A stretch of DNA of 64,000 nucleotides from an uncultured Bacteroidales bacterium (lineage in GTDB: Bacteria; Bacteroidota; Bacteroidia; Bacteroidales; WCHB1-69), in the NCBI GenBank assembly GCA_946409645.1, contig CAMJXE010000002.1:15808-79807 (forward strand). Direction: 5' to 3'. A model generated the notes under the pieces. The model did no database searches. It had not been told where the DNA came from and saw only the letters and a list, made by a program, of their open reading frames with translations. Each line of letters opens with the position of its first letter. The stretch's first letter is position 1. The position numbers were made by a program, and so were the translations under genes. Below, one piece after another: positions 9,890-51,755 of the stretch.

Positions 9890-10939
9890 TTACCACCCTG
9901 GAGCATCGCCACGACTCACATCAATCTTGTAACCAGTAGATGCGATTCTGACCCCGAGGCAGTTCACGCATTGCGCAGATTCGTCGCCCGTGCAAATCTT
10001 GTTGTCGTAAAGGTCGTACTTTTTACGTACGGATACTGGCGAAAGGTTCGGCATCACCACGTTTGCACCCGCCATCAGCCCTTTTTCGCGGCCCGTCTTG
10101 TCGATGGTGCCCAAAGCGGTGGTGGAGGGTAGCAGCAATTGCGGCATCATCAGTCGCAGAAGACCCAGCATGAAGAGTGTCAGCTCCACTGTGCCGCCCG
10201 ATTCGTTAGCGAACGGGGTGGCGTGATGCGGCACAAAGGGTCCGATACCGACCATCTGCGGCTGCAACTCCTTGATAAAGAGCATATCCTCAGCTAACAG
10301 TTCTGGTGTCTGGAATGGTGTGCCCACCATAAATCCTGTACCCACTTGGTAACCAATATCTTTCAAATCCCAGAGACATTGTATGCGGCGCGCGTGTGAC
10401 ATCCACGCAGGATGCAATTGCGCGTAATGCTGCGCGTTAGCCGTTTCATGACGCAATAAGTAACGATCAGCACCAGCATCAAAGAGTTTCTGGTAACGCT
10501 CTTTCGCGCGCTCACCCAAGGAGAGCGTGATGGCACAATCGGGGAAGCGAGATTTGATGTTGCCAATCAACCGTACCAGCACTTCATCGGTGAAGTGCGC
10601 ATCCTCGCCGCCCTGCATCACGAACGTCCTGAAACCCAGCTGATAACCCTCTTCACAACAGGCGAGAATGTCCTCTTCGGTGAGACGATAACGGTCTGCA
10701 GTCTCGTTGCTGCGACGTATGCCGCAGTAGTAGCAGTCGTTGGCGCAATAGTTGGAAATCTCGATGAGTCCGCGCAAATAGACGGATTTCCCGAAATAGC
10801 GTTCGCGCACGACCCGCGCCCGCTCGAACAAGTACTGGGCATCCTCTTCGGAATGAGATGCAATCAAAAAGGCAAACTCCTCTTTGCTAAGGATTTGCGT
10901 TTCTTCCAATTGGGATATTAACGTCTTGCTATTTTCCAT
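9890..10939 (-). CDS. hydE: radical SAM maturase HydE-like ([FeFe]-hydrogenase H-cluster maturase family)
   Basis: CANDCYYCGIR (CxxxCxxC), GADRYLLRHETAN, MVGIGPFVPH, GANVMPN-type motifs as in HydE. The ATG at 10939 (MENSKTL...) is preferred over the track start at 10981. Confidence 0.75.
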   Translation of the reverse strand: MENSKTLISQLEETQILSKEEFAFLIASHSEEDAQYLFERARVVRERYFGKSVYLRGLIEISNYCANDCYYCGIRRSNETADRYRLTEEDILACCEEGYQLGFRTFVMQGGEDAHFTDEVLVRLIGNIKSRFPDCAITLSLGERAKERYQKLFDAGADRYLLRHETANAQHYAQLHPAWMSHARRIQCLWDLKDIGYQVGTGFMVGTPFQTPELLAEDMLFIKELQPQMVGIGPFVPHHATPFANESGGTVELTLFMLGLLRLMMPQLLLPSTTALGTIDKTGREKGLMAGANVVMPNLSPVSVRKKYDLYDNKICTGDESAQCVNCLGVRIASTGYKIDVSRGDAPGW

Positions 10940-15800: not shown

Positions 15801-18800
15801 ACATTGTAGGCGTTGGTTGCACCGTTGTCGTTGGAGACGTAGAGAGCGTATTGGCCTGCTTGTTGCGCGGCCTGCCCAATATACCAGCGGTTATCGCCCA
15901 CACCCAGCAGACGCCAGTCGCGGTTCTCGTCACTCTCTTCAAAGCCGCAGAAATAGGGCAGCTGCGCTTCGGTGGCTTCCGTGAAGAAAGTGCTTACATC
16001 GCTCCACTGGCTGGCGAATGACGGCACGCAGCTCTTGCGCACGCGCCACGTGTATTGCGTGGAGGACTGCAAATTCTGCAGCAATAGGAACGTGTCGGTG
16101 GTGGAAAGCTCGTACCATCCCGTATCGCTGCTCATCCGGTAGCCGACTGAGTAGTCGTTGGTGATGCCGCACACACCGGGGCTCCAGGAGACCACCGCTG
16201 TGACATCGGCAAGGTCGGAAACGGTCAGTTCCGTCGGGATGCTGCATGGCGAACCGACGATGGAGATGTTGTCCACGGCACCGGCAAGTGGATTGTTCGT
16301 CCCTGCAACCTGCTGTCTCCAAAGGAAGTATAGACGTTGCATGCCCGCATGGGAACCGTTGATTACGAAACGGAAATGGTTCCAGTTGGCCATCCCATAG
16401 AAGTCGCCGATAACTTCTGCATTGGCGGGGGTGTAATTGCCGGAAGGGGTTGTCGGTGGTCCGAGGAACACCCTTACATAGTCCACAGATGCTCCGGGAT
16501 AACCGTAAGAGCGGATGTCGAATTCCATCAGATATTCGGAATATTGCGGATCGAAGTAGATGTCGCGATAAGCCCAGGTCTGGGCGTTCACGTTGTCGGA
16601 GAAGGTATTGGAAACGCCGTTGTTGTTGGAGACATATAGCGCGGAGTCGCCATCACAGTGCACCGCATGGCCGATGTACCACTTGTGGTTGTTCATACCA
16701 TCATCTATTATCCAACATACGTTCTCATCTGCCTCCTCAAAGCCGCAGAAATAAGGCAAAGTAGTCGTGCTGAACTGGAACTCGTCGCTCCATACGCCTT
16801 GCATAGTGTCGCAGTTGGTCCTAACTTTGGCTATATAGTTGGTCTTGGGTTGCAGGTTGGTCAGCATAACTTGAGTGCTGTTGGCGGTCAAATAACTATA
16901 GCTGCTGTCGGATTGTCGGCGGTAAGCCACCGTGTAGGAGTCGGCTTGGTAAACCGCATCCCAAGACAGCAGCGCATCGTTCTCCGACACTTGGTTGGCG
17001 GTCAGATGGCGTGGGATGCCGCAACCCTCCGGTGTGATGGAGATGTTGTCGAAGGCCGCCGGCGGGTTGGTGCCCCATGACACGTCGCTGCGCCACAGGA
17101 TGTAGATGCGCTGCAGACCGGTGAATGCGGTGTCTAAATTGATGGTGACATTGTGCCAGGTGGAATCCAAATAGATGACATCGCCCATCTGGGTTGCACC
17201 GTCGGGGACAATAATATTTGAGCTGACGGGTGTGACAGTTGGCGTCGTGGGAGGTCCTAAGAATACTTTCGCGTAGTCAACTGGATTGTTGTTATACAGC
17301 TCGCCGAAAGCTCTGCAGTCGAATGAAATCACATAATCGGTATAGCTGGGATCCAGATAGACATCGCGGTAAGCCCATATCATGGAATAGTTGGTCGTGT
17401 AGGTGTTGGTGGCGCCATTGTCATTGGATACATACAACGATGAGGTACCTCCGTTGTTCACAGCGTTTCCGATATGCCATTTGTTGGCGTAACTCCCGTT
17501 GACGAACGTCCATCGGCTGTTCTCATCCGCATCTTCGAAATCACATACGTAAGGCAGACGGGCGGTGATTGCCGGGGTCTGGAAGGTGGATTCCGCAGAC
17601 CATTGGCTGTGGTCGGTAGCGGTGCAGTTGGCCCGCACTTTCCAAACGTAGGTGGTCAGCGGAGTGAGGTTTCCGATGGTGAGATGTTCGTCAGGAACGG
17701 TGATGTACGTGAAGGCGGTGTCATATTGCAGTTTGTAGGCAACAGTGTAAGATTCGGCACTGCCGTTGTGCATAGACCACAACAGATTGGCGAGCGTGTC
17801 CATCGCCTGCGCGGTCAGTTCGTAAGGGACATCGGTACACGGGGTGCCGTCGATGGTGAGGTTGTCGATGGCGGCCGGCGGATTGGAGACTGTCCAGCCG
17901 GTGTTGCGCCACAAGAAATAGAGTCGTTGCAGACCAGCATAGGAGTGGTTCAACGTGTAGGTTTTGGTTGTCCACGCCGACATTCCGCAAAGGCTGTTTC
18001 CTAATTCGGTGGCCCCGGCGGGCGTGGTGGTGCCGTTAGGTGTGACAGGACTTCCGATGTAAACATTGGTGTAAGCAGAAATTTGGTAGCTGGTTCCTCC
18101 CACCCCTCTCATGTCAAAGGAAAGGGTATAGACGGAATCGGACGGGTCGAAATAGATGTCCCGGTAAGCCCAAACGTAAGAACTGTTATAAGGGTAAGAG
18201 TATGCGTAAGTTACACCTCCATTGTTCGATATATACAAGGAATAGTCCCCGCTCAAGCTGACCGCGTTGCCAACGTACCATTGGTTGTTATAGGTCCCAT
18301 TCACGAACTGCCAGGCATTGCGCTCGTTGGCATCTTCAAAGTCACAGATGTAGGGCAAAGCCGCAGGCATCCGGACGCTGAGGTCGCTGGACCATCCACT
18401 ATGATCGTTAGCGGAGCAATTGGCGCGCACTTTGCAGAAGTAGGCGGCGGACGGAGTGAGTCCGCTTACGGTCAAGAAAGTGTCCGTGGTCGTGTATTCG
18501 GTGGTCGTGGTGCTTCCCGCTTGTCGCACGCTCACGGTATAGGAAACCGGATTGTCAGATGTGGGTGTCCATGCCAAAGCAACCGTTTGGTCGGTCATGC
18601 CGGTTAACGCTAATTCAGACGGTATGGCACAGTCGGAGCCGACCACGGTGAGATTATCCACAGCGGCTGGAGGTTGCACCCCTAAAGAGTTGTTGTTAAC
18701 CCACAGGAAATAGATGCGCTGTATGCCTGTGTAAGAGGAGTCGAGAGTAAATACGTAGTGTGTCCAGTCGTTAACAGAGGATATGGCAGTGCCCAGTTGC

Positions 18801-21800
18801 ATTGCGCCGGCGGGTGTTGTTGTGCCAGACGGGACAGCGGGACTGCCCACAAACACCTTCATGTAGTCGGTATTGGCCTGCCCCATGCCTTTGAAATCGA
18901 ACGAAAGCTGGTATTCGGCATGGCCGTTGTCGAAGAAGACATCGCGGTATGCCCACACGGAAGCGTTTTCCGTGATGGTATATGCGTTGGTCGTGCCGCC
19001 GTCATTGGAGATGTAGAGGGCGTGGTTGTCTTCGTAGCCAGTGGCATTGCCGATGACCCATTGGTTTTCCGCTTCTCCGTTTACCATCGTCCATTGGCTG
19101 TTTTCAGCGGTGTTGTCAAAGGCGCAAACGTAGGGCAAATGATTCAGCATCTGCGTGGTGGTGAAGAACATATCTCCGCTCCATTCACTCTGTTCATTAT
19201 CTGTGCAGTTGGCGCGGATTTTCCACGTGTAAGTGGTTTCAGGAAGAAGTCCGGTCAGCACACAAGTTGTGTTTTGCACAGACATTTCCACATAGAGACT
19301 GTCGTCCAGTTTCTTGTAAGCCAAAGTGTAGGAGAGCGGGGAGCCTGCGCTGGGAGCCCAGGAAAGGATCGTGGTGGTGTCTTGCGTCTGGGCTGCCAAA
19401 TTAGCAGGGACACCGCACGTAGAGACGGTGATGGAAATATTGTCGATGGCGGCAGGTGGATTGATGCCGGAATTATTGTTGTTGTTCCACAAGATGTAGA
19501 GCCGTTGCACGCCCGCATGGGTGGAATCTACGGTGAAACTTTTGTGCACCCATTGGTCGGTCAGGTTCAATTCCTCCCCGATTTGGGTGAAGGGGATAGT
19601 AACATTATAATATTCGACAGGAGGCGTGGCAGGGGTGTCGAGGAAAAGCTTAACATAGTCCTGCCCTTCTTGTCCCACGCCTTTGAAATCCAGAGAGAAC
19701 TGGTACTGGGAGTATCCCGGTTCCAGATAGATGTCGCGGTATGCCCAGACAAATGAATAGCGTTGCATGTCATAAGTGTTAGACACACCGTCATCGCTGG
19801 AAATATACAACAGCGTATTGTCAGTAACATTTGTCGGAGTGCCGATAAACCAGCGGTTTTGGTAATCGTAGTTAAAAGAACCCCCTCCATAGTTGTTAAT
19901 TTCACAGTTTTCACCGTTTCGGATAGTCCAATTTTTATTTTCCGTAGAATCTTCAAAGTCACAGAAATAGGGAATCGAGGCCAATGTTTTGAAAGCCTTT
20001 TCGCTGCTCCATTCGCTCCATTCGTTGTTGGCATATAGGGCTTTCAGTTTCCAGGCATACCAGCTGGATGCTGCCAAGTTGGAGAACTGGAAGACTGTAT
20101 CGGATGCAGACAAGAGCGTTTCCGTATATGTCGGATCCTCCTCTGCGCGGTAGGCTAACAGATACGCCTGTGGTACCTCAACGGTGTCGGATTGCCACAT
20201 CAAACGTGCCGAGTGGGAGGTGATGTCCGTTGTGGACAATTGTCCGGGAATAGTATGGTTGATGCCCTTTATGGAGATGTTGTCGATAGCACCAGCGGGA
20301 TTCAAAGAGGTGTAGAATGTAAATTCGATGCGCAGCTGCTGGAGTCCGGCAAATGATGAATCTACCGTGATGCTGTGGTGAGTCCAGAATGGCGCATCGC
20401 TCAGAAATCCGCTCACGGCATCATAATTAAGGAAAACTTGCATAAATCCCTGCATACTACCGCCGCCTTTAACATCAAAATCAATCTGATACTTGGAGAA
20501 TCCTGGTGTGAAGTAGATTTCCCGGAAGGCATACGGCTCTCCTCCATGCGGGATGTAACTGTTGGTGAGGCTGCCATCGTTGCTGATGTACAGGGAATTT
20601 TGTCCGCCGCACGCAACGGCATTGCCAATATAAACTTGATTGTTTTCTGATTCCCAGTCAGTTACAATCTGCCAGTTACTGTTTTCCACAGCATCCTCAA
20701 AATCACAGAAATAGGGCAACCCAACATGCAGTTGGTCGGTGTAGAAATCTTCTTCATCGCTCCAGAAACTGTATTCCGAAGGGCTGCAGTTGGCGCGGAC
20801 TTTCCACACATATTCGGTGAGCGGTTGCAGGCCGCCTATTATGCAGGACGTGTCAGTTACGATCACTTCCGTGAACACGGTGTCATTCATTTTGCGATAC
20901 GCCACCGTGTAGGATTCCGGAGTTTGATTGTCGAAAGGCTGCCAAGAGAGTTCGGCTAAAGTGTCCGTAACGGTTACATTTTGTAAAGAGCCAGGTCGTC
21001 CGCAGTTAGTGGCCGACACGCAGAAATTGTCCACCGCCGCCGTGGGGTTGCACGTGTAATAGCCATAATCTTCCCAGCTGAAATAGATTCGTTCTGCTCC
21101 ATAGTATGAGGAATCAACAATGAACTCATAATGTTGCCAAACACTGTCAGGTGCTTGATAGTATTGACTGTTAAAGAAGTGAATAAATGAATTTTCTGAT
21201 GGAATGCCATTGTTGTAATTGATTGATTCTTGGATGGTTGGCCGACCAATAATGAGCTTTAGGGAAGAATAATCGCAACGGCTCTCCTTGACATCAAACG
21301 AAATCAAATATTCAGTGGCACGATGGAAATACAAATCCCGATAGGCTAACGTGTAAACACTGTAATAATCAGGATGATAGCAAGAAGTGGTTGTTCCATC
21401 GTCACTAGAAACATATAAGGAAGAGGTGCCGCTGTTATTGATAGCTTGACCAATATACCATTGCGTGTTAGTGTCTGATGCAATGAATTGCCATTGGGCA
21501 TTATCAGTGGAGTCCTCGAAGCTGCAGCAGTAGGGTAGCGGATAGACAATGGGGGCGGAGAGGAAACTTAATTCAGGACTCCAGTCGCCAACTTCCGATG
21601 CACTACAATTGCTGCGCACCTTCCACACATAGTGGGTGGAATATTCCAATCCGGTGAGCAAAACGAATGTGTCAGCGACCGTAACACTGGTGAAATCCGT
21701 TTCGTTTTTTTGCTTGTATGCTACAGTATAGCTGTTTGGTTGTCCTGTCAGCGGAGTTGACCACGTCAGCAATGCCGTTGTGCTGTCCAAAGAGGCCACG

Positions 21801-23989
21801 GATCTTTCAATAGGATAGAGACAGTGAGGCTCCACGACTGCAATATTGTCGATAGCGAAAGGTTGGTTCTGGGAGTGGTAGGAACTGGAACTTCTGTAGA
21901 AGAGGAAATAGAGTCGTTGCAATCCCCGCTGTGTGGAGTCTAACATGTAATAAGCTGATTTCCATTCGTTATATGCAGTGGCTAATGAACTTCCAAGCTG
22001 CTCGGCATTTTCTGGGACATTATTTCCGGAAGGCAAAGTAGAAGGTGGTCCCATGAACACTCTAGCGGAGTTGGCTGGGACGTGCGCATTCCGGTAATCA
22101 AAAGTGAGCAGTACATCGTTGAGGGTGGAGTCGATGTATATGTCGCGATAGGCCCAAACGGAGAAAGAACTGGGCGGTGAGTAGTTGTTGTGCTCTCCAT
22201 TGTCGTTGGTAATATACATACCCATCTCGCCTGAGGTGTGCGCGGCCGTGCTGATGCACCACTTGTTAACGCCGGTGCCGTTGACAAACTGCCAGTTGTT
22301 GTTCTCAACAGCATCCTCAAATCCGCAATGGAAGGGGACATGGGCAATGGATATCTGCGTATGGAACATCGTTTCAGAACTCCATGCACTCTGCTCTGTG
22401 GCCGAACACCGTGCTCTCACCATCCATAGGTGGTCGCTGGCCGATTGCAACGCCGGCAACACGCAGAACGTGTCCATGGTCGTTATTGTCAGATAGTTGG
22501 TGTCAGACTCCAAGTGGTAGGCCACCTCGTAGCCTGCGGTTGCGCCCGGAGAGGCGTTCCATGACACAGTGGCTGAAGAGTCGGTCACTGAAAGGAGGGT
22601 TAGCTCAGCGGGAACGGCACAATCCGAAGCTCCCACACGGATGTTGTCGATAGCGGCGGGCGGATTTGTACCGTCGGAAGCGTTGTTTACCCATAAGAAG
22701 TAAAGTCGCTGGTTTCCCGCGAAGGAGGCATCCACCGTAAAACAAAAGTGCTGCCATGCGTAAACCATACTTAAGGCATCGCCCAACTGTGTTGCTCCAG
22801 CTGGTGCTGCGGACCCAGAAGGAGTGGTTTGCGGACCCAAAAACACCTTGACATAGTCCTGTCCGTTTTGTCCCAACCCTCTGAAGTCGAAGGAGATCTG
22901 GTATTGTGCCTGTCCAGCAGGAAGTTGGATGTCGCGGTAAGCCCAAGCCACAGATGATTGGGTATTTGTATAGGCATTGTTTTCACCACCGTCATTGGAG
23001 ATGTAGAGAGATGCCTCGCCGTTCCGTGCCACGGCCTCCCCAATATGCCACTGATTGATGGAGTTCTGAGCGAAACCCCATTCCAAGTTTTCGGCATTGT
23101 CTTCAAAACCGCACTGATAGGGCAAAGTAGCAAGATGTTGCAGCGTGGTGAACGTGTTGACCGTACTCCAGTCGCTCATTCCGGCAGTGCCGCAGTGGGA
23201 GCGTGTTTTCCATTCGTAATCGGTAGAAGTCTGAAGTCCTGTCAGAGTCAGGAAAGTATCCGTGGCCACCATCTCTGTGAAAACGGAGTCGGAAATTTTC
23301 TTGTAAGCCACCGTATAGGACGAGGCAGGCAGGATGGGATCGGTATTCCATGTCAACAGCACAGTATCTGCGCCTATGTTACTCGCGTGTGTATATGTGG
23401 GCGCGAAACAGCCGCTTTCGTAGGCAAAAGTGGTTTGAGGCAGGAATGCTGCACCGTGTGTATATGTCGATACAGATGTAGTATAGGTCATATAGGAGAG
23501 TTGGGCAGTTTGGTTTGCCCCGTAGAAATAGGAGTCTTTCCACGTAGCCCCGACGGGATTCTCGAATTCTATCAGCAAGTTCCCACCGGTATATGGGAAC
23601 GGCTCATCCAGCGTGATCCCCATGGTTGACTCCGAAATGCAACTCGACAACGTGCCGGTCCAAACCGTCGTGACTGATGCATTATCATAGCCGTTTTGCA
23701 GGTTGGAGGCGGTAGTAATGCCCATGCGGACCATCTGCGTCCCACCCCATGCACCTGAGGGCAGCGAGGAGAAGTAGTAGGTCAGCCCAGTGATGTGCGA
23801 GCCCACCATGTCGGTCAGCAAATTGGCAGGATACAGCACGTGTGATTTCTGCGGCACATCCATATAATATCCATATACAGGGATGTATCGGTCGGTAGCC
23901 GTGTTGCCACCTGCAACGGTGAGGGTCTGCGCGTTCAGCCCTGCCACCAGCGTTGCTAAAATCACGAATAAGGAGATGAGGTTTTTCAT
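12833..23989 (-). CDS. giant modular T9SS-secreted surface protein (~3,718 aa)
   Basis: One uninterrupted ORF. ATG at 23989 gives the signal peptide MKNLISLFVILATLVAGLNAQ (the track start at 24016 is TTG). 13 FN3-like units alternate with 10 type-A and 3 type-B beta-sandwich-like modules. C-terminal LYPNPTTGK...GVYFVRV...KRVVKR is a T9SS sorting domain. Confidence 0.9.
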   Translation of the reverse strand: MKNLISLFVILATLVAGLNAQTLTVAGGNTATDRYIPVYGYYMDVPQKSHVLYPANLLTDMVGSHITGLTYYFSSLPSGAWGGTQMVRMGITTASNLQNGYDNASVTTVWTGTLSSCISESTMGITLDEPFPYTGGNLLIEFENPVGATWKDSYFYGANQTAQLSYMTYTTSVSTYTHGAAFLPQTTFAYESGCFAPTYTHASNIGADTVLLTWNTDPILPASSYTVAYKKISDSVFTEMVATDTFLTLTGLQTSTDYEWKTRSHCGTAGMSDWSTVNTFTTLQHLATLPYQCGFEDNAENLEWGFAQNSINQWHIGEAVARNGEASLYISNDGGENNAYTNTQSSVAWAYRDIQLPAGQAQYQISFDFRGLGQNGQDYVKVFLGPQTTPSGSAAPAGATQLGDALSMVYAWQHFCFTVDASFAGNQRLYFLWVNNASDGTNPPAAIDNIRVGASDCAVPAELTLLSVTDSSATVSWNASPGATAGYEVAYHLESDTNYLTITTMDTFCVLPALQSASDHLWMVRARCSATEQSAWSSETMFHTQISIAHVPFHCGFEDAVENNNWQFVNGTGVNKWCISTAAHTSGEMGMYITNDNGEHNNYSPPSSFSVWAYRDIYIDSTLNDVLLTFDYRNAHVPANSARVFMGPPSTLPSGNNVPENAEQLGSSLATAYNEWKSAYYMLDSTQRGLQRLYFLFYRSSSSYHSQNQPFAIDNIAVVEPHCLYPIERSVASLDSTTALLTWSTPLTGQPNSYTVAYKQKNETDFTSVTVADTFVLLTGLEYSTHYVWKVRSNCSASEVGDWSPELSFLSAPIVYPLPYCCSFEDSTDNAQWQFIASDTNTQWYIGQAINNSGTSSLYVSSDDGTTTSCYHPDYYSVYTLAYRDLYFHRATEYLISFDVKESRCDYSSLKLIIGRPTIQESINYNNGIPSENSFIHFFNSQYYQAPDSVWQHYEFIVDSSYYGAERIYFSWEDYGYYTCNPTAAVDNFCVSATNCGRPGSLQNVTVTDTLAELSWQPFDNQTPESYTVAYRKMNDTVFTEVIVTDTSCIIGGLQPLTEYVWKVRANCSPSEYSFWSDEEDFYTDQLHVGLPYFCDFEDAVENSNWQIVTDWESENNQVYIGNAVACGGQNSLYISNDGSLTNSYIPHGGEPYAFREIYFTPGFSKYQIDFDVKGGGSMQGFMQVFLNYDAVSGFLSDAPFWTHHSITVDSSFAGLQQLRIEFTFYTSLNPAGAIDNISIKGINHTIPGQLSTTDITSHSARLMWQSDTVEVPQAYLLAYRAEEDPTYTETLLSASDTVFQFSNLAASSWYAWKLKALYANNEWSEWSSEKAFKTLASIPYFCDFEDSTENKNWTIRNGENCEINNYGGGSFNYDYQNRWFIGTPTNVTDNTLLYISSDDGVSNTYDMQRYSFVWAYRDIYLEPGYSQYQFSLDFKGVGQEGQDYVKLFLDTPATPPVEYYNVTIPFTQIGEELNLTDQWVHKSFTVDSTHAGVQRLYILWNNNNNSGINPPAAIDNISITVSTCGVPANLAAQTQDTTTILSWAPSAGSPLSYTLAYKKLDDSLYVEMSVQNTTCVLTGLLPETTYTWKIRANCTDNEQSEWSGDMFFTTTQMLNHLPYVCAFDNTAENSQWTMVNGEAENQWVIGNATGYEDNHALYISNDGGTTNAYTITENASVWAYRDVFFDNGHAEYQLSFDFKGMGQANTDYMKVFVGSPAVPSGTTTPAGAMQLGTAISSVNDWTHYVFTLDSSYTGIQRIYFLWVNNNSLGVQPPAAVDNLTVVGSDCAIPSELALTGMTDQTVALAWTPTSDNPVSYTVSVRQAGSTTTTEYTTTDTFLTVSGLTPSAAYFCKVRANCSANDHSGWSSDLSVRMPAALPYICDFEDANERNAWQFVNGTYNNQWYVGNAVSLSGDYSLYISNNGGVTYAYSYPYNSSYVWAYRDIYFDPSDSVYTLSFDMRGVGGTSYQISAYTNVYIGSPVTPNGTTTPAGATELGNSLCGMSAWTTKTYTLNHSYAGLQRLYFLWRNTGWTVSNPPAAIDNLTIDGTPCTDVPYELTAQAMDTLANLLWSMHNGSAESYTVAYKLQYDTAFTYITVPDEHLTIGNLTPLTTYVWKVRANCTATDHSQWSAESTFQTPAITARLPYVCDFEDADENSRWTFVNGSYANKWHIGNAVNNGGTSSLYVSNDNGATNTYTTNYSMIWAYRDVYLDPSYTDYVISFDCRAFGELYNNNPVDYAKVFLGPPTTPTVTPVSSNIIVPDGATQMGDVIYLDSTWHNVTINLDTAFTGLQRIYILWRSDVSWGTNPPAAFDNISITPEGCGIPRHLTANQVSENDALLSWDAVYQADSYTVAYRRQSDSSYSYLTANSTQVMLTNLQPKTNYIAKVRTNCDTMQGVWSDEFQFSTTTLPYFCGFEEADENVCWIIDDGMNNHKWYIGHAVHCDGDSALYVSNNNGVSNTFSDNVNAQTWAYRDIYFDPQYSEYLMEFDIRSYGYPGASVDYVRVFLGPPTTPSGNYTPANAEVIGDFYGMANWNHFRFVINGSHAGMQRLYFLWRQQVAGTNNPLAGAVDNISIVGSPCSIPTELTVSDLADVTAVVSWSPGVCGITNDYSVGYRMSSDTGWYELSTTDTFLLLQNLQSSTQYTWRVRKSCVPSFASQWSDVSTFFTEATEAQLPYFCGFEESDENRDWRLLGVGDNRWYIGQAAQQAGQYALYVSNDNGATNAYNVYGSMSNSWAYRDIYFTPGYSEYQIAFDFRGLGQSGDDRTRIFLGPPVPVEPNATYSITIPSGLEELGNGLYTDAAWTSHSFTVDSTHAGHQRLYFLWSNGHYEGTNPPGAVDNIMIYGGSCAAPHTLTVTATSTTSISISFTPADTSDQNWEAVIVEEGQPLDTTQIVALTSTAYTFNNLHKDRLYTIYVRTNCGNSQSAWCSTSQRTDCGTITDIPYMESFDTYGTGSNLDGYSAFPRCWSRLYSSYIVAPYPFIFPNGFYSSPGSLYFQPSNGHNVAITPEFDSSIPLNTLQASFKFKANTTAPNSILVVGVMTDPNDFATFTPVDTVFPNPYALTSWIDRTVSLASYTGNGHYLAFMQENFSNPLTPVSMDNLTVDYLSACPLPTNVTAEPITHDSVLVDWQPGGSETAWRVVVVPNGNGPESGTPVLTGTHPIVIGGLADNTMYDVFVQSDCGSSSSSWCTPATFMTTCAPVVDLPYSENFDDYPWMSSYIVRPDCWIFPVTYAECPRIDWNTYGYYGMESKALLFHSDTSTTATAVTQPFGVDIHSLRAQFRLSADHEYIAGCMEVGVMSDPYDLSTFESVQVISIAHFDTWQDVTVDFRNTAMTGTNRHIAFRQVGLHSSNMAMWLDDLIVYQADDCDAPSGLTAHDLTSTSAAISFEPSHSSASQWEYVACAPGVSPNTQTLVATASTSFVVDNLTPGQTYRIFVRTDCGSNSHSEWSESLEITPDCGIISQLPYTETFDTYGTDSETAFPDCWRRILTPASYSYYPIVSSEVSASGVGSMLFLANSFSDDWAITPAFAPNLSFDSIQLDFSYFQEAGAAPGWDTMFIGVMSSPYDAVSFVPVDTITLQSWGVWEPHSVLLDHYNGDGRYVAFRYHCPAYLGKVFIDDVVFSVRPDVGVPERDIDQLLHLYPNPTTGKCIVRNEQDLIEQLEVFDMYGKRLEQHFVRDYQTVIDLSAHASGVYFVRVTTEQGTVTKRVVKR
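12836..13052 (-). other. T9SS C-terminal sorting domain of the giant protein (approximate bounds)
   Basis: LHLYPNPTTGKCIVRNEQ...LSAHASGVYFVRVTTEQGTVTKRVVKR. Confidence 0.8.
13060..15175 (-). repeat. three type-B modules, FN3-like linkers after the first two (approximate bounds)
   Basis: Modules begin IPYMESFDTYG..FPRCW, LPYSENFDDY..RPDCW and LPYTETFDTYG..FPDCW. All contain VGVM(T/S)DP. Confidence 0.7.
15440..23134 (-). repeat. ten type-A modules each followed by an FN3-like linker, period ~260-300 aa (approximate bounds)
   Basis: Ten occurrences of (L/I/V)P(Y/F)xC(x)F(E/D), with shared SLY(I/V)SN(D/N), WAYRD(I/V), FDF(R/K)G, DY(V/A/M)KVF(L/V)G, QR(L/I)YF(L)W and NPPAA(I/V)DN motifs. Confidence 0.8.
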
Positions 23990-24011
23990 AATAATATGTT
24001 TTTTTCTAATT

Positions 24012-24066
24012 TTCAAGTTTCAGGATTCAAGATTCAAAGTTCAAAGCTCAAGGTTCAAGGTTAAAA
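24012..24066. repeat. degenerate 7-8-mer tract (TTCAAG-type) forming the leader of the giant gene
   Basis: ttcaagtttcaggattcaagattcaaagttcaaagctcaaggttcaaggttaaaag. It lies between the -7 box (24077-24084) and the start codon. Confidence 0.85.
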
Positions 24067-24084: not shown

Positions 24085-26784
24085 CTATTCTTTGATGAAT
24101 TTCTTGGTGACCTCTATATCATCGCATTTGATTTGGATGAAATAAACGCCTGAGGCAAGATGCCCGAGAGGGATTCTCGCAGTTGCTTCCACCATAGATA
24201 TCTCTCCGACCTTTCGGCTTTGGCTGTCGTACAACTCGATCTGGCAAGGCCCTGATTCCTCCTCCAAAATCACGTCGATATATTGTTTGGCAGGATTTGG
24301 ATATAGCTTGATACTGCTTAGCAGATACTCGTCAACATGGTCTTCAATGGTGTCATTTTCGGGCAGGGTGGCAAAAATAGTTTCCTCACTATAATCGGTT
24401 ATACCAAAGCAAGTGATGAATGCCCTGAAGGCGTATGTTGTGTTTGCGGTTAAATTGGTCAGTTCGGCCATAAAAGCATTATTCGAGATGGAACAATCAA
24501 TCGGAGTAAACTCATTTTCCGAGATATCCTTCCATTCAAACCCCGCAGCAGAGACAGACAAGTTGTCCGGATTATGAATGGTGGCGCTAAGTGTCGCGGT
24601 TGTCTGTCCGATAGAGTCTGCGTCAACAGCCATCACAGAGGGGCGCACTGGGAGAATTGCGGTATCAACGACCTCTAATGTCAGGTCGTCAATGTGAAGC
24701 CACATTGGGCCATTAACTCTCACAAACCTTATGGCGGGATAGCCATCCGCCCAATGATAATCCGCCACGCGAAGCGTATATTCCTGGAAACTTCCGCCTG
24801 CCGCACCAATCACATCAATTGTGTCGTTAGGAATAAAGGTGGAACTGTTCTCTGGATTCGTAATCAGTCCACCGATGACCTGAACATGCCAATCGCTATA
24901 AGTTCCCATATTCTTGGCATAGAACTTAATTTGCAAATTATCAATCGGATAGAGATTCTCCTCCACTTTGGGGAGTACGACAATGTTTGACCCGTTATCT
25001 ACGTAGTACAGCCGCAGCACCCGTGTACCACTGTGAGACTCGTCCGTCCTAATGGTAGCAGATGCGGATAATGTTTTCCAACATACAGGCAACATGGTCT
25101 CATTGTTATAATATTCAAAGTCCCAAGTCGCGGGAAGCTCAACAATTGGATCGCAAAGAGTAGAAAAATCGTGGAGTTCGTGACTTGCCGCTTCGGTGCC
25201 GTCATCGCATCGTGCCGCCACATACCATTGGTAAATTGTACCCGAGGTCAGTCCCGACAAAGTGTAAACGCCATTGTTATTCAACAACACGTTCGGCACA
25301 ACCGTAAATGCATTGTTCCCCTTGATTCGGTAGTATAGGTTACAGGATGATTCTGTTCCCGTCCAACTCAAATTGATACTGTTATGCGTAGGACTGGACG
25401 ATTCCAAATTGTATGGTCTTGGACACGAAAGCGTATAGTCAAGGAGCACATCTTTCACGTATATGTCGCTGTGGTCGATACATTTGAAAGAGACTCTGTC
25501 CCCAACTCCAGTGTAACCGTTTATCGGAACCAAATAAGTCTCGTATGATGTAGTCAGGCTTAGCGTGTCAACAGCCACAAACGTGGAGTCTGCACTGGCA
25601 TCGGTCATCACACCAATGATCAAGGTGCCATTGTTCGTTTCACTTCTGGCGGAAAAGGAAACCTCCACAGTATTTATATCAATGAGCTGTCTGTTCAAAT
25701 GCGGCATCGAGATGGTGTTGGGAATCCAAAGATTGATAGCACCATAGCTAATAACAGGGTCGCAGCAGCTTCCTGGGCCTCTTTCCCAACAAACAGGAAT
25801 CGGATGCATAGTACTTGAGACAAGAGATAAGTCGCAGATGTAAGGAAGGGTGTCGATATATTCACAAAGTGTAGTGAAGGATTGTTTGATCCAGACACTG
25901 GTATCGCTACCGCAATTGCGTGCCACCCTTACCCAATATTTCGTTATAGACTGCAAACCAGTCAACGTCACAGACGTGTCTTGCACGTTCACGGTGGTGA
26001 TATAGGCATCGTCCCAATTCTGTCCATCTTTAGCATATTGGACAATATAATCAGAGGCACCACCCTCAGGCATATTCCACGACAACTCTACTGAATGGCT
26101 CTGGATGTTGGAGACGGAAAATCCGGTAAGAGGGGTACAGGTCTCTCTTTTCAAACGCAAATTGGTGATGGTAGGTGCGGGCTGGATTCCGTGATCGTAG
26201 GTGCTGCCGTAGTCATTAACCCATCCGAAAACCAGTTTTGCAATTGAGTTGGTATCGGGATTGGCAATCGGATTGTTCATCCGAACATCCAAATGGATAG
26301 TTTTGCCATCTGTCAAATTGATAATATAAGGATAGTTTGGCGTGTTGGTCATATCGAAGTGGTCGCTGAAGTTGGCTGCATAGACGGAGTTCGTACTGAC
26401 ACCCCACGAGTAGGCGATTCCACCCTCGTAGATCTGGGAAGGAGGCGCCAAAAACATTTTCAGAAAGTCTTTGTTGTACTTGCCGCCGCATTTCAGATCG
26501 AAAGAGACAATAATCTTGTCCGCATCCCCGACCACAAATGTCTTTTCGGCAGCAACATTACTCCGGGTGTAGGAATAGGTGGGAGTGGCACCGTTGTTGG
26601 TCACAAGGAGTGCATTGTTACTGCCAGAGGTACCTAATATCCAGTAATTCTGAGCATCACCATTGTTCAGCACCCAACCTTCCGACGTGGAAAAAGTGGC
26701 CGTGTAGGGAAGAGCGGGCTCCTGTGCCACAACGGTCAGCATTGAAATTAACATCAGCCATTGGATAATACACAACTTTTTCAT
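24085..26784 (-). CDS. T9SS-secreted modular surface protein (~899 aa), smaller paralog of the giant protein
   Basis: ATG at 26784 gives the signal peptide MKKLCIIQWLMLISMLTVVAQ. One type-A-like module (LPYTATFSTSEGW...), FN3-like units, two type-B-like modules (LPYICDL..PVCW, LPATWDFEYY..PVCW). C-terminal KLYPNPAKQ...GVYFIQI...KKFIKE sorting domain. Confidence 0.88.
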   Translation of the reverse strand: MKKLCIIQWLMLISMLTVVAQEPALPYTATFSTSEGWVLNNGDAQNYWILGTSGSNNALLVTNNGATPTYSYTRSNVAAEKTFVVGDADKIIVSFDLKCGGKYNKDFLKMFLAPPSQIYEGGIAYSWGVSTNSVYAANFSDHFDMTNTPNYPYIINLTDGKTIHLDVRMNNPIANPDTNSIAKLVFGWVNDYGSTYDHGIQPAPTITNLRLKRETCTPLTGFSVSNIQSHSVELSWNMPEGGASDYIVQYAKDGQNWDDAYITTVNVQDTSVTLTGLQSITKYWVRVARNCGSDTSVWIKQSFTTLCEYIDTLPYICDLSLVSSTMHPIPVCWERGPGSCCDPVISYGAINLWIPNTISMPHLNRQLIDINTVEVSFSARSETNNGTLIIGVMTDASADSTFVAVDTLSLTTSYETYLVPINGYTGVGDRVSFKCIDHSDIYVKDVLLDYTLSCPRPYNLESSSPTHNSINLSWTGTESSCNLYYRIKGNNAFTVVPNVLLNNNGVYTLSGLTSGTIYQWYVAARCDDGTEAASHELHDFSTLCDPIVELPATWDFEYYNNETMLPVCWKTLSASATIRTDESHSGTRVLRLYYVDNGSNIVVLPKVEENLYPIDNLQIKFYAKNMGTYSDWHVQVIGGLITNPENSSTFIPNDTIDVIGAAGGSFQEYTLRVADYHWADGYPAIRFVRVNGPMWLHIDDLTLEVVDTAILPVRPSVMAVDADSIGQTTATLSATIHNPDNLSVSAAGFEWKDISENEFTPIDCSISNNAFMAELTNLTANTTYAFRAFITCFGITDYSEETIFATLPENDTIEDHVDEYLLSSIKLYPNPAKQYIDVILEEESGPCQIELYDSQSRKVGEISMVEATARIPLGHLASGVYFIQIKCDDIEVTKKFIKE

Positions 26785-26818
26785 GACGAAATCATTCATT
26801 TATATCAGTTTTTGGCGG

Positions 26819-27118: not shown

Positions 27119-28183
27119 ATGAAACACCGAAGAACCATCGTTATCGTTTTGCTGAACGTCTTGTTCTGCGCCGTGCTGCTCTACTTCTTTGTCAACAACT
27201 CCTATCTTCGTCCATGGGCGGGCAGTATCACCAATGAAGTGCTTGTGGGACTGTTGCTGTTGGCCACCGTATATGCCAACTATTTCCTGTTTTACCCCCT
27301 ACTTCATAGAAAGCATCCGGTTGTCTATTGGGTGGTGGTGGTTTTCGTTTCCATTGTGGCAGGATTGATTGAAATGATTATCGCCTGGAAATGGATCAAA
27401 TATTGTAATGCGGGGGTTATAGAGCAATTTGGTGCCTTCAGAATGTTTACCCATCATGGGAGAGTTGTAGCTGCCCGAACCTTGGCATTCAACTTCTTCC
27501 CGTTTATGTTCCGGGAACGGCAGGAACTGCGAAAGGCTCTGGACGCAGAAGTGCAGGTGGTCTATCGTGACACTCTGATGGTGGATGTCGTTGACCAAAA
27601 GAGCAACCTGCTCATGATTCCCAAAAACGACATCTACTATTGTGTTCAGGACGGGAACTTCACCCGCATCTATACAGTGGATGACCGTTGGTTTACCCGG
27701 CTTGGTTCCATGAAACATCTTGTGCAACTGTTTGGGGAAGAAGACTTTGTCCGCATTTCGCCCACCGTTTTGATTCCGTATCAGTACATTTGGTCGTGCA
27801 ACGGCAGCGAGGTGTTCCTGAAAAAGATGCCGTGGACGAAGAAGCCGCTCACGTTCACGTTGGATCCCAAAAACAGTGGCCTGATTGCCGACCAGGTCGC
27901 CGAGGGTCTTCAGCGATGCAAGGCCGAAACAGCAGGGGAACAAGCTCCGAAGAGAAAGCCCCAGTCGAAGTCCAAACGGAAGCCCGTCGTCCCCCCGCAG
28001 CAGAAACTCGACATGGTTCAATCCTGCATTCAGGCGAATCCGGGCTGCAACACCACGGATATCGTCGCCCAGACCGAGATTTCGCTGAGCACGGTCGAGC
28101 GTTGCCTTTCCGAGCTCCGCAAACGCAAGCTCGTCAAATACGTCGGCAGCAAGCGCCACGGCGGTTACCATGTTAATTCATAA
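27119..28183 (+). CDS. membrane-anchored LytTR-domain DNA-binding protein with extra C-terminal winged-helix-like domain
   Basis: Three or four N-terminal TM helices. LytTR-like core (LLMIPKNDIYYCVQDGNFTRIYTVDDRWFTRLGSMKHLVQLFGEEDFVRISPTVLIPYQYI). Lys/Pro-rich linker. C-terminal NTTDIVAQTEISLSTVERCLSELRKRKLVKYVGSKRHGGY. Confidence 0.75.
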   Translation: MKHRRTIVIVLLNVLFCAVLLYFFVNNSYLRPWAGSITNEVLVGLLLLATVYANYFLFYPLLHRKHPVVYWVVVVFVSIVAGLIEMIIAWKWIKYCNAGVIEQFGAFRMFTHHGRVVAARTLAFNFFPFMFRERQELRKALDAEVQVVYRDTLMVDVVDQKSNLLMIPKNDIYYCVQDGNFTRIYTVDDRWFTRLGSMKHLVQLFGEEDFVRISPTVLIPYQYIWSCNGSEVFLKKMPWTKKPLTFTLDPKNSGLIADQVAEGLQRCKAETAGEQAPKRKPQSKSKRKPVVPPQQKLDMVQSCIQANPGCNTTDIVAQTEISLSTVERCLSELRKRKLVKYVGSKRHGGYHVNS

Positions 28184-28200
28184 TGCATAATGCATAATTA
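28177..28200. repeat. left 24-nt inverted repeat flanking the four-helix-bundle gene
   Basis: ttcataatgcataatgcataatta. Its reverse-complement partner at 28572-28595 matches 23 of 24 positions by hand alignment. Confidence 0.75.
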
Positions 28201-28606: not shown

Positions 28607-28830
28607 TCATCTCCTACCCCAATTGTCCCTATCCAAATTCCTAAAATTGATGGCCTCGCTCAGATGCCCAATCTCGATGTTCGGGCTGCCGTCGAGGTCG
28701 GCGATGGTGCGGGCCACCGCCCACGATCGCAACATCGCTGATGGTGTGGTGCGGTGCACGGAACGGCCGCGTGGAGATGATCGAGGCGTACTCGTAGCGG
28801 TCGAGACTGTCGTTGAAGGCATGGGTCACG
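28607..28830 (-). pseudogene. mosaic mini-copy of comM made of three non-contiguous segments
   Basis: 28607-28713 aligns to 30019-30125 (C-terminal 36 codons plus the stop). 28714-28787 aligns to ~30704-30774 ([23 protein letters not shown]). 28788-28830 aligns to ~30985-31029 ([11 protein letters not shown]). The seg1/seg2 junction is out of frame. Confidence 0.85.
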
Positions 28831-28951
28831 TCTTTTTACGCGAGAAAGGGTATTACGGCACTGCCACAAATCGTTTGCATTACGCTTGCTAGATGAAGAA
28901 GATTATGAAGTGACGGACGACTAAGCCATCTTTGCTACACATTTCAACAAA

Positions 28952-29424
28952 TCATTCTACCTGTTTGAATATTTTTTGTTCGTCATATTCAACTTCGCTT
29001 TCCTCCAACAGCTTTTTGTATTCGTTCACCATGTCTTGCTGTTTGTGGTGTTCCGCCTGGTTTTCGATATATCGGATAATGGTGGGTATTTCATCTTTTG
29101 AATATGAGAAAGCACCATACCTTCCTGCCAGGAGAACCAGCCGTTGGCGAGCCTGTTCTCGTTTATCCATTTCGACGAACACCCTTTGACGTGCTGCATC
29201 AAATCGGACAACGATTGTGATGGGCGCATTCCTATCAGAATGTGGACATGATCCGCCGTTCCGCCTATGGACAGAACTTTATGGCGGTTGTTTTGGATTA
29301 TGGCAATCATGTATTTGTACAGACGCTCTCTCCAAGAATCGAGGATAAGGGATCCCCTGTTTTGAACTGCAAAAACCAGTTGGATATGGATTTGCGTGTA
29401 GGTGTTGTTTCTCATTGATTTCAT
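28952..29424 (-). pseudogene. IS200-like / REP-associated tyrosine transposase (RAYT-type, HUH Y1 family) with a 1-nt frameshift
   Basis: NTYTQIHIQLVFAVQNR, HUH motif ADHVHILIG, then ...FSWQEG. The frame breaks at ~29119-29123. The next frame continues YGAFSYSKDEIPTIIRYIENQAEHH, which holds the putative catalytic Tyr region. Confidence 0.75.
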
Positions 29425-29460
29425 AATGGTTTGATTTGTTTGTGTGATAATTGTTTTTCG

Positions 29461-30018
29461 TCTTTTGTTTCGTCCCTGAAGGGACGTTTACGGGGAACCG
29501 TGATGTTTCCCGTTCTACCGAGCTTTCGTCCCTATCGGGACGTGGGACATGGGCGGCGGCTCCCTTCTACCGAGCTTTGGCCCCTGACGGGGCTATTCGC
29601 GACCGGTACGGATTTGCACAGGCGGGTACAGCGAGGATGTATGTTCCACCGGCGTAACAGCCCCGTAAGGCTCAACGACCACGATGGATGCCTTGTCCCG
29701 AAGGGACACAAGCTCGGTAGAAACGGTGTTCCCGACCGACCCCCAATGCCCCTTCAGGGGCGAAACATGTCCCGCAGGAACACAAGCCCGGTAGAAGGTC
29801 GCCACCAGGCGGACACCTTGTCCCGCAGGGACACAAACCCGGTAGAAACGGTGTTCCCGACCGACCCCCAATGCCCCCTCAGGGGCGAAACATGTCCCGC
29901 AGGGACACAAACCCGGTAGAAGGTCGCCACCAGGCGGACGCCTTGTCCCGCAGGGACACAAGCTCGGTAGGAACGACGTTTACGGACGGGTTCCCAATGC
30001 CCCTTCAGGGGCGAAACC
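29461..30018. repeat. REP-like array of GC-rich short hairpins with inverted outer arms and a ~126-bp unit repeated ~2.6 times
   Basis: Hairpins CGTCCC-TGAA-GGGACG (29471), CGTCCC-TATC-GGGACG (29527), GCCCC-TGAC-GGGGC (29579), TGTCCC-GAA-GGGACA (29694) and GCCCC-TTCA-GGGGC (29748, 29873, 29999). Tandem units at 29691-29816 and 29817-29941, then a partial unit. The left arm carries ttctaccgagc and the right arm carries gctcggtagaa. Confidence 0.85.
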
Positions 30019-31563
30019 TCACCGCCTCCCCCAATTGTCCCGGTCCAGATTCCGGAAATTGATGGCCTCGCTCAAATGCCCGATTTCGATGTTCGGGCTG
30101 CCGTCAAGGTCCGCGATGGTGCGGGAAACCTTGAGAATGCGGTCGTAGGCACGGGCGGAGAGACCGAGGCGGTCCATCGCCTGCTTCAGGAGCAGCTGCC
30201 CCGCTTCGTCGATGCGGCAATATTCCCGCACCATCCTGCTGCTCATCTGCGCGTTGGCGAAGAGTCCCGGGTGTCCCGCGAACCGCTGCTTTTGGATTTC
30301 CCGCGCCGCCACCACCCGCTTGCGGATTTCCGCGCTCCGCTCCGATGGCTTGTCGGACGCTAACTCCTCGTGGCTGACCGGGACGACCTCTACGTGCAGG
30401 TCGATGCGGTCCATCAAAGGTCCCGAAATCTTACTCAAATAGTTCTGGACCTCGAAGGGTTTGCAGGTGCAGGCAATCGTCGGGTGGTTGTAGTTGCCGC
30501 ACGGACAGGGATTCATGGCGGCGATGAACATGAACGAGGCTGGAAACTCCACCGAATACTTTGACCGCGAGATGGTGACCCGCCGTTCCTCCAACGGCTG
30601 CCGCATCACCTCCAACACCTGCCGCTTGAATTCCGGCAATTCGTCCAGAAAGAGCACACCGTTATGCGCGAGCGAAATCTCGCCCGGCTGCGGGTGCGTG
30701 CCGCCACCCACCAACGCCACATCACTGATGGTATGGTGCGGCGAACGGAACGGCCGGGTGGAGATGATGGAGGCAAAACGGCTCATCTTGCCCGCCACGG
30801 AATGGATTTTGGTGGTCTCCAAGGCCTCTTCCAAGCACAAAGGCGGCAATATCGACGGCAACCGCTTGGCCAACATGGTCTTGCCGGAGCCTGGCGGACC
30901 GATCAGAATCACATTATGTCCGCCGGCCGCCGCAATCTCCATCGCCCGCTTGATGTTCTCCTGCCCCTTTACGTCCGAAAAGTCGTACTCGTAGCGGTCG
31001 AGACTGTCGTTGAAAGCGTTGGCCACATCAATGCGCGTCGGCTCGATGGGCGTGCCCTTGTCGAAAAAGTCAATCACCTGCTTGATATCCGTGGCTCCCA
31101 AAATGTCGATGCCATCGACGATGGCGGCCTCTCGGGCGTTCTGGACGGGCAGGATCACCCCCTTTTTCTTCCGCTTCCGCGCCTCTAAGGCAATGGGCAG
31201 CGCCCCGCGGATCGGCTGAAGACTTCCATCCAGCGACAATTCCCCGAGGATAAAATAGTCCTCTAGTTCCGCCGCCCCGGCAATCTGCTCCGACGCGGCC
31301 AAGATGCCGATGGCCAGCGTCAAATCGTAGGCCGAGCCCTCTTTGCGGATGTCCGCCGGAGCCATGTTCACTACAATTTTCCGACCCGGAATCTTGTACC
31401 CATAGGCGTTTAATGCTGTTTCGATGCGTTGTTGACTCTCTTTTACCGCACTGTCGGGTAACCCGACCAAAAAGAAGCCAATTCCATTATCTACGTTGAC
31501 TTCCACAGTGATGGGTATTGCGGCAACCCCCACCAATGCACAATTGTTCGTTCTTATCAACAT
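30019..31563 (-). CDS. comM: YifB/ComM family Mg-chelatase-like AAA+ ATPase
   Basis: 514 aa. N-terminal Lon-like domain, Walker A GPPGSGKT, Walker B LFLDELPEF, C-terminal ChlI-like domain. Confidence 0.9.
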   Translation of the reverse strand: MLIRTNNCALVGVAAIPITVEVNVDNGIGFFLVGLPDSAVKESQQRIETALNAYGYKIPGRKIVVNMAPADIRKEGSAYDLTLAIGILAASEQIAGAAELEDYFILGELSLDGSLQPIRGALPIALEARKRKKKGVILPVQNAREAAIVDGIDILGATDIKQVIDFFDKGTPIEPTRIDVANAFNDSLDRYEYDFSDVKGQENIKRAMEIAAAGGHNVILIGPPGSGKTMLAKRLPSILPPLCLEEALETTKIHSVAGKMSRFASIISTRPFRSPHHTISDVALVGGGTHPQPGEISLAHNGVLFLDELPEFKRQVLEVMRQPLEERRVTISRSKYSVEFPASFMFIAAMNPCPCGNYNHPTIACTCKPFEVQNYLSKISGPLMDRIDLHVEVVPVSHEELASDKPSERSAEIRKRVVAAREIQKQRFAGHPGLFANAQMSSRMVREYCRIDEAGQLLLKQAMDRLGLSARAYDRILKVSRTIADLDGSPNIEIGHLSEAINFRNLDRDNWGRR

Positions 31564-49475: not shown

Positions 49476-49571
49476 TATACCGAAAAGCCCCCATATATGA
49501 AACCACTTCCTTGAGCAGCCCCGTAGGGGCAAGAGCTAGGTAGCCAGGGGTGAGCGCAGCGAAACCCCTGG
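49476..49571 (+). repeat. ~96-bp structured intergenic element, copy A
   Basis: Near-identical to 51610-51706. Contains hairpins GCCCC-GTA-GGGGC (49518-49530) and CCAGGGG-N14-CCCCTGG (49544-49571). Confidence 0.9.
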
Positions 49572-51706: not shown

Positions 51707-51755
51707 AACGAATGACGACAATGACACGATGAAACGATGAATTAACAATAATATA

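Follow-up and report, generated by a model that had tools for sequence, protein, structure and literature searches.

How does a short non-coding piece of a gene come to bear the mark of purifying selection? The question is raised by a 64,000-nt stretch of DNA from an uncultured Bacteroidales bacterium (GenBank assembly GCA_946409645.1, contig CAMJXE010000002.1; hereafter the window), in which an intact comM gene is accompanied, 1.2 kb away and in the same orientation, by a 226-bp block derived from comM itself (minus strand, 28607-28832). The evidence presented below indicates that this block is probably the displaced 3' part of a comM allele, left behind by recombination anchored in comM and subsequently eroded at microhomologies.

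To place the window we compared it with loci fetched from relatives (designated by L-numbers), which together represent about a dozen distinct comM contexts and were gathered by scanning metagenome contigs with a fragment-specific pattern and by look-ups of close ComM proteins. Three of these loci (L098, L099 and L102) were picked solely on ComM protein similarity and are thus not biased towards carriers of a comM remnant. The nearest species-representative genome is L079, an uncultured Bacteroidales metagenome-assembled genome from yak with 97% amino acid identity in ComM (residues 223-514 on that contig), and a scan of genome contigs found at most 68% ComM identity in all other species-representative genomes. 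The protein database holds 28 ComM proteins that are 92-98% identical to that of the window at the amino acid level, every one of them metagenomic, and protein look-ups returned no exact match for the window ComM, for the 71-aa open reading frame (ORF) of the fragment or for the neighboring IVP protein.

A three-piece remnant of comM

The block joins three comM pieces, nt 1438-1545 (segment 1), 790-864 (segment 2) and 535-579 (segment 3), as had been proposed in an earlier note on this DNA and as is borne out here by both BLASTN and a codon-aware alignment across 28607-28832. BLASTN of the fragment against the intact gene yields three collinear matches on the same strand, covering comM nt 1439-1545 (94/107 identical, E = 1e-35), 790-871 (70/82, E = 1e-23) and 535-583 (43/49, E = 7e-14), and no comM homology is found upstream of 28832. 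Segment 1, the displaced tail that we call comM', forms a direct repeat of the comM 3' end in the same orientation (28607-28714 versus 30019-30126, 87% identical). The stretches that the note had reported as missing between the pieces, about 578 bp out of frame and about 210 bp in frame, are found with the same lengths (Table 1).

Both junctions of the mosaic lie on microhomology, TACG at the first and 13 nt at the second, so that the search for direct repeats suggested in the note supports its proposal of internal shortening. The basis of junction 1 is preserved in the motif CG(T/G) TAC GCx at nt 784-792, present in the alleles of 6/9 full-length relatives and of L079, and in GA(G/A) TAC GA at nt 574-581, present in all alleles, while that of junction 2 is seen in the L079 allele, which reads GGTGGCACGCACC at nt 856-868 and GGTGGCCCGCACC at nt 1434-1446. 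Because the 13-nt microhomologies overlap, an apparent T to P change between segments 2 and 1 is an alignment artifact. This architecture fits deletions or template switches, and junction 2 could correspond either to a 578-bp intragenic deletion or to a deletion of ~3.4 kb between a longer resident copy and an older comM'.

Divergence of the remnant is that of a working allele

Synonymous and nonsynonymous divergence was assessed by the Nei-Gojobori method on the codon-aware alignment (228 aligned nt). Fragment and intact gene differ at 30 of these sites (86.8% identity), with 10, 0 and 20 of the differences at first, second and third codon positions, respectively, and in terms of codons with 21 synonymous and five conservative differences (T/A, H/N, A/S, I/L and A/S). 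In segment 1, 13 of 36 codons differ, 12 of them synonymously and one conservatively, one fewer than in the hand count of the earlier note (14 of 37, 13 synonymous), whose figures for segment 2 (nine codons differing, seven synonymously) hold. The proportions of synonymous (pS) and nonsynonymous (pN) differences are 0.46 and 0.035, and the ratio of the corresponding rates (dN/dS) is 0.05 (Fisher P = 8e-13) rather than near 1. Simulations of random mutation gave five or fewer amino acid changes in 0 of 50,000 runs (mean 20 versus 5 observed, P < 2e-5), and 39% of simulated neutral runs acquired a premature stop; no stop is present inside any of the three actual segments.

The divergence between the fragment and its resident counterpart equals that between functional comM orthologues of different lineages (pS 0.35-0.51, pN 0.015-0.04), meaning that the fragment resembles the working allele of another lineage. 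Across the 10 functional comM alleles sampled, only three bases of the fragment are without precedent, and segment 1 differs from the alleles of L095 and L094 at 6-7 of 112 nt versus 15 from the intact gene of the window. The codon-position pattern, together with the closer relation of segment 1 to foreign alleles, excludes a locally duplicated copy decaying neutrally, as the earlier note had argued, and its further proposal of a second comM allele shaped by protein-level selection agrees with these values. The nearest allele shifts by segment, from L095/L094 in segment 1 to L079 in segment 2 (89%). The donor search that the note had also called for gave no evident donor allele, the fragment being 83-89% identical to every sampled one.

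The layout recurs in relatives and is inherited in part

In the synteny comparison that the note had also proposed, the layout of the window recurs in five further contigs from independent assemblies of JGI and ENA, all from the same uncultured rumen Bacteroidales clade: downstream of an intact comM come 0.9-2.6 kb of accessory DNA, then a comM tail that is truncated at its 5' end and closes with a stop codon of its own, and finally the native flank. The accessory DNA is an array of repetitive extragenic palindromes (REPs) with a REP-associated tyrosine transposase (RAYT), an AAA_14-DUF4143 ATPase or a PIN toxin-antitoxin pair. In L094, the comM tail differs from the functional L095 allele at 1/112 compared nt, in the stop codon (TAA versus TGA). 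In L096, the two comM copies differ only synonymously, and their homology does not extend past the stop codon. The repeat ranges in length from 21 nt to at least 1011 nt. Its 5' end falls at comM nt ~1402-1414 in three junctions (L096, L102/L099 and L094), at ~1525 in L098 and at nt 535 or earlier in the window. The ATPases of L096 and L102 are only 45% identical, yet they adjoin comM' at nearly the same coordinate (nt ~1402-1409). A remnant is lacking in L079, L095 and L101 despite the presence of REPs and RAYT, both features are lacking in L081 and L082-L092, and a second comM copy is absent from 78 more distant Bacteroidota loci.

In L102 the correspondence extends well beyond comM. Window positions 28718-25331 are collinear with L102 10172-13523 (86.7% identity over 3.4 kb), through GGTGGCCCGCACC of segment 1, the stop codon, a heptamer motif, the IVP gene, and LytTR-like and type IX secretion system (T9SS) genes, with segment 1 itself aligned to L102 comM' at 10172-10283. 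This collinearity across the remnant identifies segment 1 as the positional orthologue of L102 comM', an inherited structure rather than the product of a private event. Segments 2 and 3 have no L102 counterpart, their place there being filled by the ATPase gene.

comM and its flanks are recombination mosaics

Identity between window and L102 shifts stepwise at the boundary between the comM stop codon and the REPs and again at the RAYT 3' end. It amounts to ~65% in the radical S-adenosylmethionine (rSAM) gene (pS 0.80), 85% in comM (pS 0.51), 95-100% in the REP array and RAYT (29942-28985 versus L102 7623-8635; pS 0.10) and ~90% in the IVP, LytTR and T9SS genes (pS 0.23-0.26). With the REPs and RAYT far closer to L102 than either flank, we conclude that this ~1-kb module alone was exchanged very recently. 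Within comM, nt ~195-1165 (window 30400-31370) are 93-100% identical to L093, while the adjoining rSAM gene is only ~65-70% identical with saturated synonymous sites, a pattern that clearly marks this part of comM as a tract recombined between lineages. In L096 and L097 the ATPase cassettes likewise show ~95% identity, which sets in 28 nt ahead of the comM stop; comM further upstream is at ~86%. comM and its flanks are thus mosaics whose tracts, of different ages, change within 3 kb at the comM 3' end, and these steps single out comM as a conserved anchor across which diverged lineages swap DNA.

Two other indications were set aside. The high GC content of comM (58%; 0.76 at third codon positions, GC3) is no proof of foreign origin, as MurG, a Zn-peptidase gene and others are likewise GC3-rich, also in relatives. 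A high GC3 also lowers the level at which sites saturate, and for this reason the lower dS of comM relative to its flanks was judged unsafe as proof that a transfer was recent, a caveat that leaves the L093 and L102 identity steps as the safe evidence for recombination.

The remnant itself shows signs of exchange with functional comM. The L102 remnant carries a private PGIEV variant of L102's own comM, in L099 a 1-nt deletion in the remnant is the sole difference between the two copies within their last ~96 nt, and the two L094 copies are identical over the first ~90 nt. The orthologous remnants of window and L102 differ at ~14/112 nt, nearly always by variants known from functional alleles, and the intergenic DNA near them is 75% identical. 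The remnant thus diverges less than its intergenic surroundings and is not evolving as unconstrained neutral DNA would. Its allele-like state is most simply accounted for if functional comM sequence overwrites it, with constraint as the alternative, and gene conversion probably helps to maintain that state. A short non-coding remnant can therefore display a signature of purifying selection without being selected, by virtue of its origin in and exchange with functional alleles, which calls for caution in dN/dS-based calls of "functional" fragments.

Probable origin of the displaced tail

We consider it probable, though well short of certain, that the block is a 3' part of comM displaced by comM-anchored recombination and later eroded at microhomologies. 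DNA would have recombined into the chromosome using the highly conserved comM as homologous anchor, and the incoming DNA would have brought its own comM 3' part together with accessory DNA. The old 3' part would thereby have been left downstream as a promoterless, 5'-truncated comM' that retains its own stop codon and still abuts the native downstream genes. Integration may have proceeded by homology-facilitated illegitimate recombination or by single-crossover (Campbell-type) integration of a circular fragment, after which microhomology deletions would have eroded the remnant and ectopic gene conversion from functional comM would have kept it allele-like. We infer that the differences are near-exclusively synonymous because each copy goes back to a functional allele in a comM pool that recombines. 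Of the two origins offered by the earlier note, the displacement of a resident allele by an incoming one fits best, and an integrative element carrying a surrogate comM end fares worse, as discussed below.

Homology-facilitated illegitimate recombination has been described in Acinetobacter, Pseudomonas stutzeri and Streptococcus pneumoniae, and transformation-generated merodiploids occur in S. pneumoniae. The comM locus resembles its products in combining one conserved anchor, a foreign segment and mosaic anchor tracts; its microhomologies, of 4 and 13 nt, belong to the internal junctions, the outer joint being at 28832/28833. It departs from them in the clustering of 5' ends at nt 1402-1414, which random illegitimate joints would not be expected to produce. 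Natural transformation has, to our knowledge, not been documented for these Bacteroidales; comM and dprA are both found in the window, which is no proof of DNA uptake.

Several points weigh against displacement by comM-anchored recombination as we describe it. The 5' ends cluster despite differing upstream DNA, which neither random illegitimate joining nor random erosion predicts; a preferred site, or else a single ancient event common to these loci, may lie behind it. As segments 2 and 3 are without L102 counterpart, an extra step is required for the window. Neither a donor allele nor a same-species genome was found, so that which copy was resident is not established, and every compared sequence is a metagenome assembly. 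As to site preference, DUF4143 is classed in the PD-(D/E)XK nuclease superfamily (PMC3424549), which makes a nuclease-driven, site-preferring process conceivable.

A variant that we regard as doubtful, if worth stating, is that the ~140-nt copy of the comM tail may be a maintained homology arm, by means of which small cassettes devoid of an integrase, such as REP/RAYT, AAA_14-DUF4143 nuclease-ATPases and PIN toxin-antitoxin pairs, would be excised via comM/comM' as loops and would re-enter behind comM in diverged genomes by a single RecA crossover. The comM tail would then serve as a docking site that needs no recombinase. The clustering of 5' ends beside ATPases of 45% identity, the slow divergence of comM' and the onset of cassette homology within the comM tail point to such a role without proving it. 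If true, it would amount to integrase-free mobility of cassettes across species driven solely by homology to a conserved gene tail.

Somewhat less likely still, in our estimate, is that the two copies are the attL/attR pair of a site-specific integrative element, namely a tyrosine- or serine-integrase island or a prophage with a surrogate comM tail, that has since been mostly deleted. Such an element would account for same-orientation 3'-end repeats, each with a stop codon, around accessory DNA in six contexts, for the placing of the 5' end at nt ~1402-1414 in three junctions, which is expected of a fixed attP arm, and for the toxin-antitoxin pair and nuclease-ATPase as typical island cargo. 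However, gene lists and Pfam reveal no integrase between or beside the copies in any of the six instances, the repeat is far from constant in length, the inserts measure just 0.9-2.6 kb, no match to the comM tail turned up among 2.9 million viral contigs scanned with a degenerate pattern, and the DNA between dprA and comM in the window consists of housekeeping genes rather than an island. At tRNA, tmRNA/ssrA and trmE-type sites, direct repeats of the gene 3' end flank integrase-borne islands. The Dehalococcoides ssrA islands (PMC3146451) are one example. Such islands and the comM locus are alike in that the target gene stays intact and functional, with accessory DNA behind it and, beyond that, the old 3' end as a displaced copy in the same orientation; the comM locus differs in having no integrase or recombinase in six instances, a repeat of 21 nt to at least 1 kb, and cargo of 0.9-2.6 kb and of unrelated kinds.

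That the RAYT/REP system itself made the duplicate, its Y1 transposase cutting at REP hairpins and moving or copying the adjacent comM tail along with the REPs, is improbable. REPs and RAYT do separate the copies in the window, L094, L099 and L102, L094 has a copy of the first REP hairpin behind its remnant, and homology between the window copies does not go beyond the stop codon, the very point at which the first REP follows the intact gene. L096 and L098, however, show the same layout without REPs or RAYT, L079, L095 and L101 have REPs and RAYT without a remnant, and the window RAYT is frameshifted. Such a role would also disagree with the known behavior of Y1 transposases: those of IS200/IS605 move hairpin-bounded single strands and produce no long target duplications, and we know of no RAYT that duplicates neighboring genes.

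Very improbable is a local tandem duplication of comM that decayed neutrally in place. The shared orientation, the distance of 1.2 kb and the internal deletions at microhomologies suit it, but the dN/dS of 0.05, the 0/30 differences at second codon positions, the five amino acid changes against a simulated mean of 20 and the position of segment 1 nearer to foreign alleles (6-7 differences) than to the intact comM of the window (15) do not. It could be rescued only by a later foreign overwrite of the intact gene, and would then merge with the displacement favored above. Least credible is a chimeric assembly join of comM reads from two strains, for although the source is probably metagenome-assembled, REP arrays break assemblies and L093 and L100 end within the array, assemblers do not make two internal microhomology junctions, the layout is repeated in five independent JGI/ENA assemblies, and collinearity of the window with L102 runs through the remnant and on over 3.4 kb of common downstream genes.

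The AbaR/Tn6022 islands of Acinetobacter baumannii, Tn7-like transposons that interrupt and inactivate comM with a 5-bp target duplication, resemble the window in making comM a hotspot for acquired DNA. Here, in contrast, comM is a full 514-aa ORF, the insert follows the stop codon and the phylum is another one; no transposition module (tniA/B/C-like) was found in the window. The structure is best regarded as a displaced gene-tail scar at an insertion hotspot, a known sort of genomic scar, and in this clade the comM 3' end emerges as a place where small accessory cassettes have entered repeatedly.

Table 1. Positions of the features around comM in the window, with the comM tails found in related contigs
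Feature	Position	Strand	Evidence
Intact comM, 514 aa, YifB/Mg-chelatase-like AAA+ ATPase	30019..31563	-	Pfam ChlI, Mg_chelatase, Mg_chelatase_C, E 6e-98
Segment 3, comM nt 535-579	28788..28832	-	40/45 nt identical to intact gene
Junction 1, TACG microhomology	28787..28790	-	210 bp missing, in frame
Segment 2, comM nt 790-862	28715..28787	-	64/75 nt identical over codon block comM 790-864 (28713-28787)
Junction 2, 13-nt microhomology GGTGGC(A/C)CGCACC	28706..28718	-	578 bp missing if intragenic, out of frame
Segment 1, comM nt 1438-1545 with stop codon (displaced tail comM')	28607..28714	-	94/108 nt identical to intact gene
REP array: GC-rich hairpins (GCCCCTGAAGGGGC, GTCCCTGCGGGAC), CTACCGAGCTT motif, both orientations, two 125-nt tandem units	29467..30017	.	
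RAYT, IS200-like Y1, inactivated	28952..29424	-	PF01797, E 1.2e-19
Conserved 35-nt 3' flank of RAYT module	28917..28951	-	Homology with L099, L079 and L095 ends at 28917-28937
84-nt spacer, RAYT module to comM remnant	28833..28916	-	No significant match in any fetched locus
Heptamer-repeat motif (ATTATGA/C)n directly after remnant stop codon	28574..28603	+	6 matches versus 0.04 expected
23S-rRNA-IVP family four-helix-bundle gene, first of the block common with L102	28198..28560	-	PF05635, E 3.5e-27
L094: REPs and RAYT, then ~135-nt comM tail, then copy of first REP hairpin			
L096: AAA_14-DUF4143 ATPase gene, then ~145-nt comM tail			
L098: PIN toxin-antitoxin pair, then 21-nt comM tail			
L099: REPs, RAYT and internally deleted ATPase, then comM tail ~50 nt from dprA end			
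L102: REPs, RAYT and intact ATPase, then 137-nt comM tail			

Accessory DNA between the copies

The earlier note had placed a transposase remnant and a REP-like array between the two comM copies. The former is a frameshifted RAYT (PF01797, E = 1e-19) and the latter is real, its repeats falling into families D1-D6 and inverted pairs I1-I16, with 9 and 5 matches in REP motif scans versus 0.15 and 0.01 expected. A Y1 transposase gene beside REP hairpin arrays, the hallmark of a REP/RAYT system, occupies 28952-30017, and Pfam identifies nothing in the way of a recombinase between the window copies beyond this RAYT pseudogene and the REPs. Relative to L079, the RAYT has lost 1 nt near 29120 (GGAAGG-TATGG versus GGAAGGATATGG in the alignment), and its two reading frames together match the intact 157-aa L079 protein, itself a PF01797 member (E = 2e-26). 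The deletion shifts the frame ahead of the C-terminal part, which makes the RAYT either a pseudogene or the product of a sequencing error. Identity to L102 is 85-100%, mostly 95-100%, in the REP stretch 29523-29942, and 85-100%, mostly 92-100%, in the RAYT up to ~28976. The interval resembles REP/RAYT systems in its single PF01797 Y1 gene by clustered GC-rich hairpins and in the related repeats elsewhere in the window, a likeness that concerns the cargo between the comM copies and not the comM remnant. A second dispersed REP-like repeat (CCAGGGG...CCCCTGG, CTACCnAGCTCTTGCCCCTACGGGGC) is present in two copies, at 49525-49580 and 51660-51715, and has a CTACC-AGCT motif and its hairpin style in common with the array beside the RAYT. 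The idea that the 84-nt spacer is homologous with the ATPase leader of L099/L102 was considered and rejected, the similarity to the L099 spacer being no better than that of shuffled sequence (100/500 shuffles score at least as high).

In the relatives, AAA_14-DUF4143 ATPase genes lie directly upstream of the remnant in L096 (2109-3362, minus strand), L102 (8815-10083), L097 (8641-9246) and L099 (9921-10060). Downstream of the remnant, L094 (4540-4740) and L098 (7150-7420) have in common a non-coding region of ~250 nt with a long inverted repeat (GTGCAATTAACACCA...TGGTGTTAATTGCGC); an Rfam search of the window region and of L094/L098, this inverted-repeat region included, gave no match.

Genomic surroundings

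In the window, dprA (634-1731, plus strand) and a DUF4837 gene (2-526, minus strand) sit 28 kb from comM; in L082-L092 dprA adjoins comM tail-to-tail with a gap of 3 bp. The intervening 28 kb were considered as an inserted island, and this was rejected: they hold genes for PBP1a, BamD, CoaBC, RecN, MurG and similar housekeeping functions, a content that indicates rearrangement. In L101, the block of comM, REPs and RAYT has the opposite orientation with respect to the YbaK block.

On the other side of the remnant, the IVP gene is 98% identical to its L102 counterpart at the amino acid level (pS 0.26). The heptamer motif at its remnant-proximal end has an inverted partner at 28176-28198, and the pair, ATTATG(A/C)ATTATG(A/C)AT, brackets the IVP gene both in the window and in L102 (10294-10309 and 10685-10700); the gene may itself be a small inserted cassette. 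Single copies of the heptamer occur upstream of the YbaK-like gene in L079, L094 and L095 and at other intergenic spots in L081 and L097; the motif was rejected as an end of the L101 inversion, L101 being without a copy. Further along, positions 12833-24016 of the window hold one ORF of 3727 aa, followed by a 904-aa protein with fn3 and T9SS-sorting domains (24085-26799), both of them large secreted surface proteins typical of the group.

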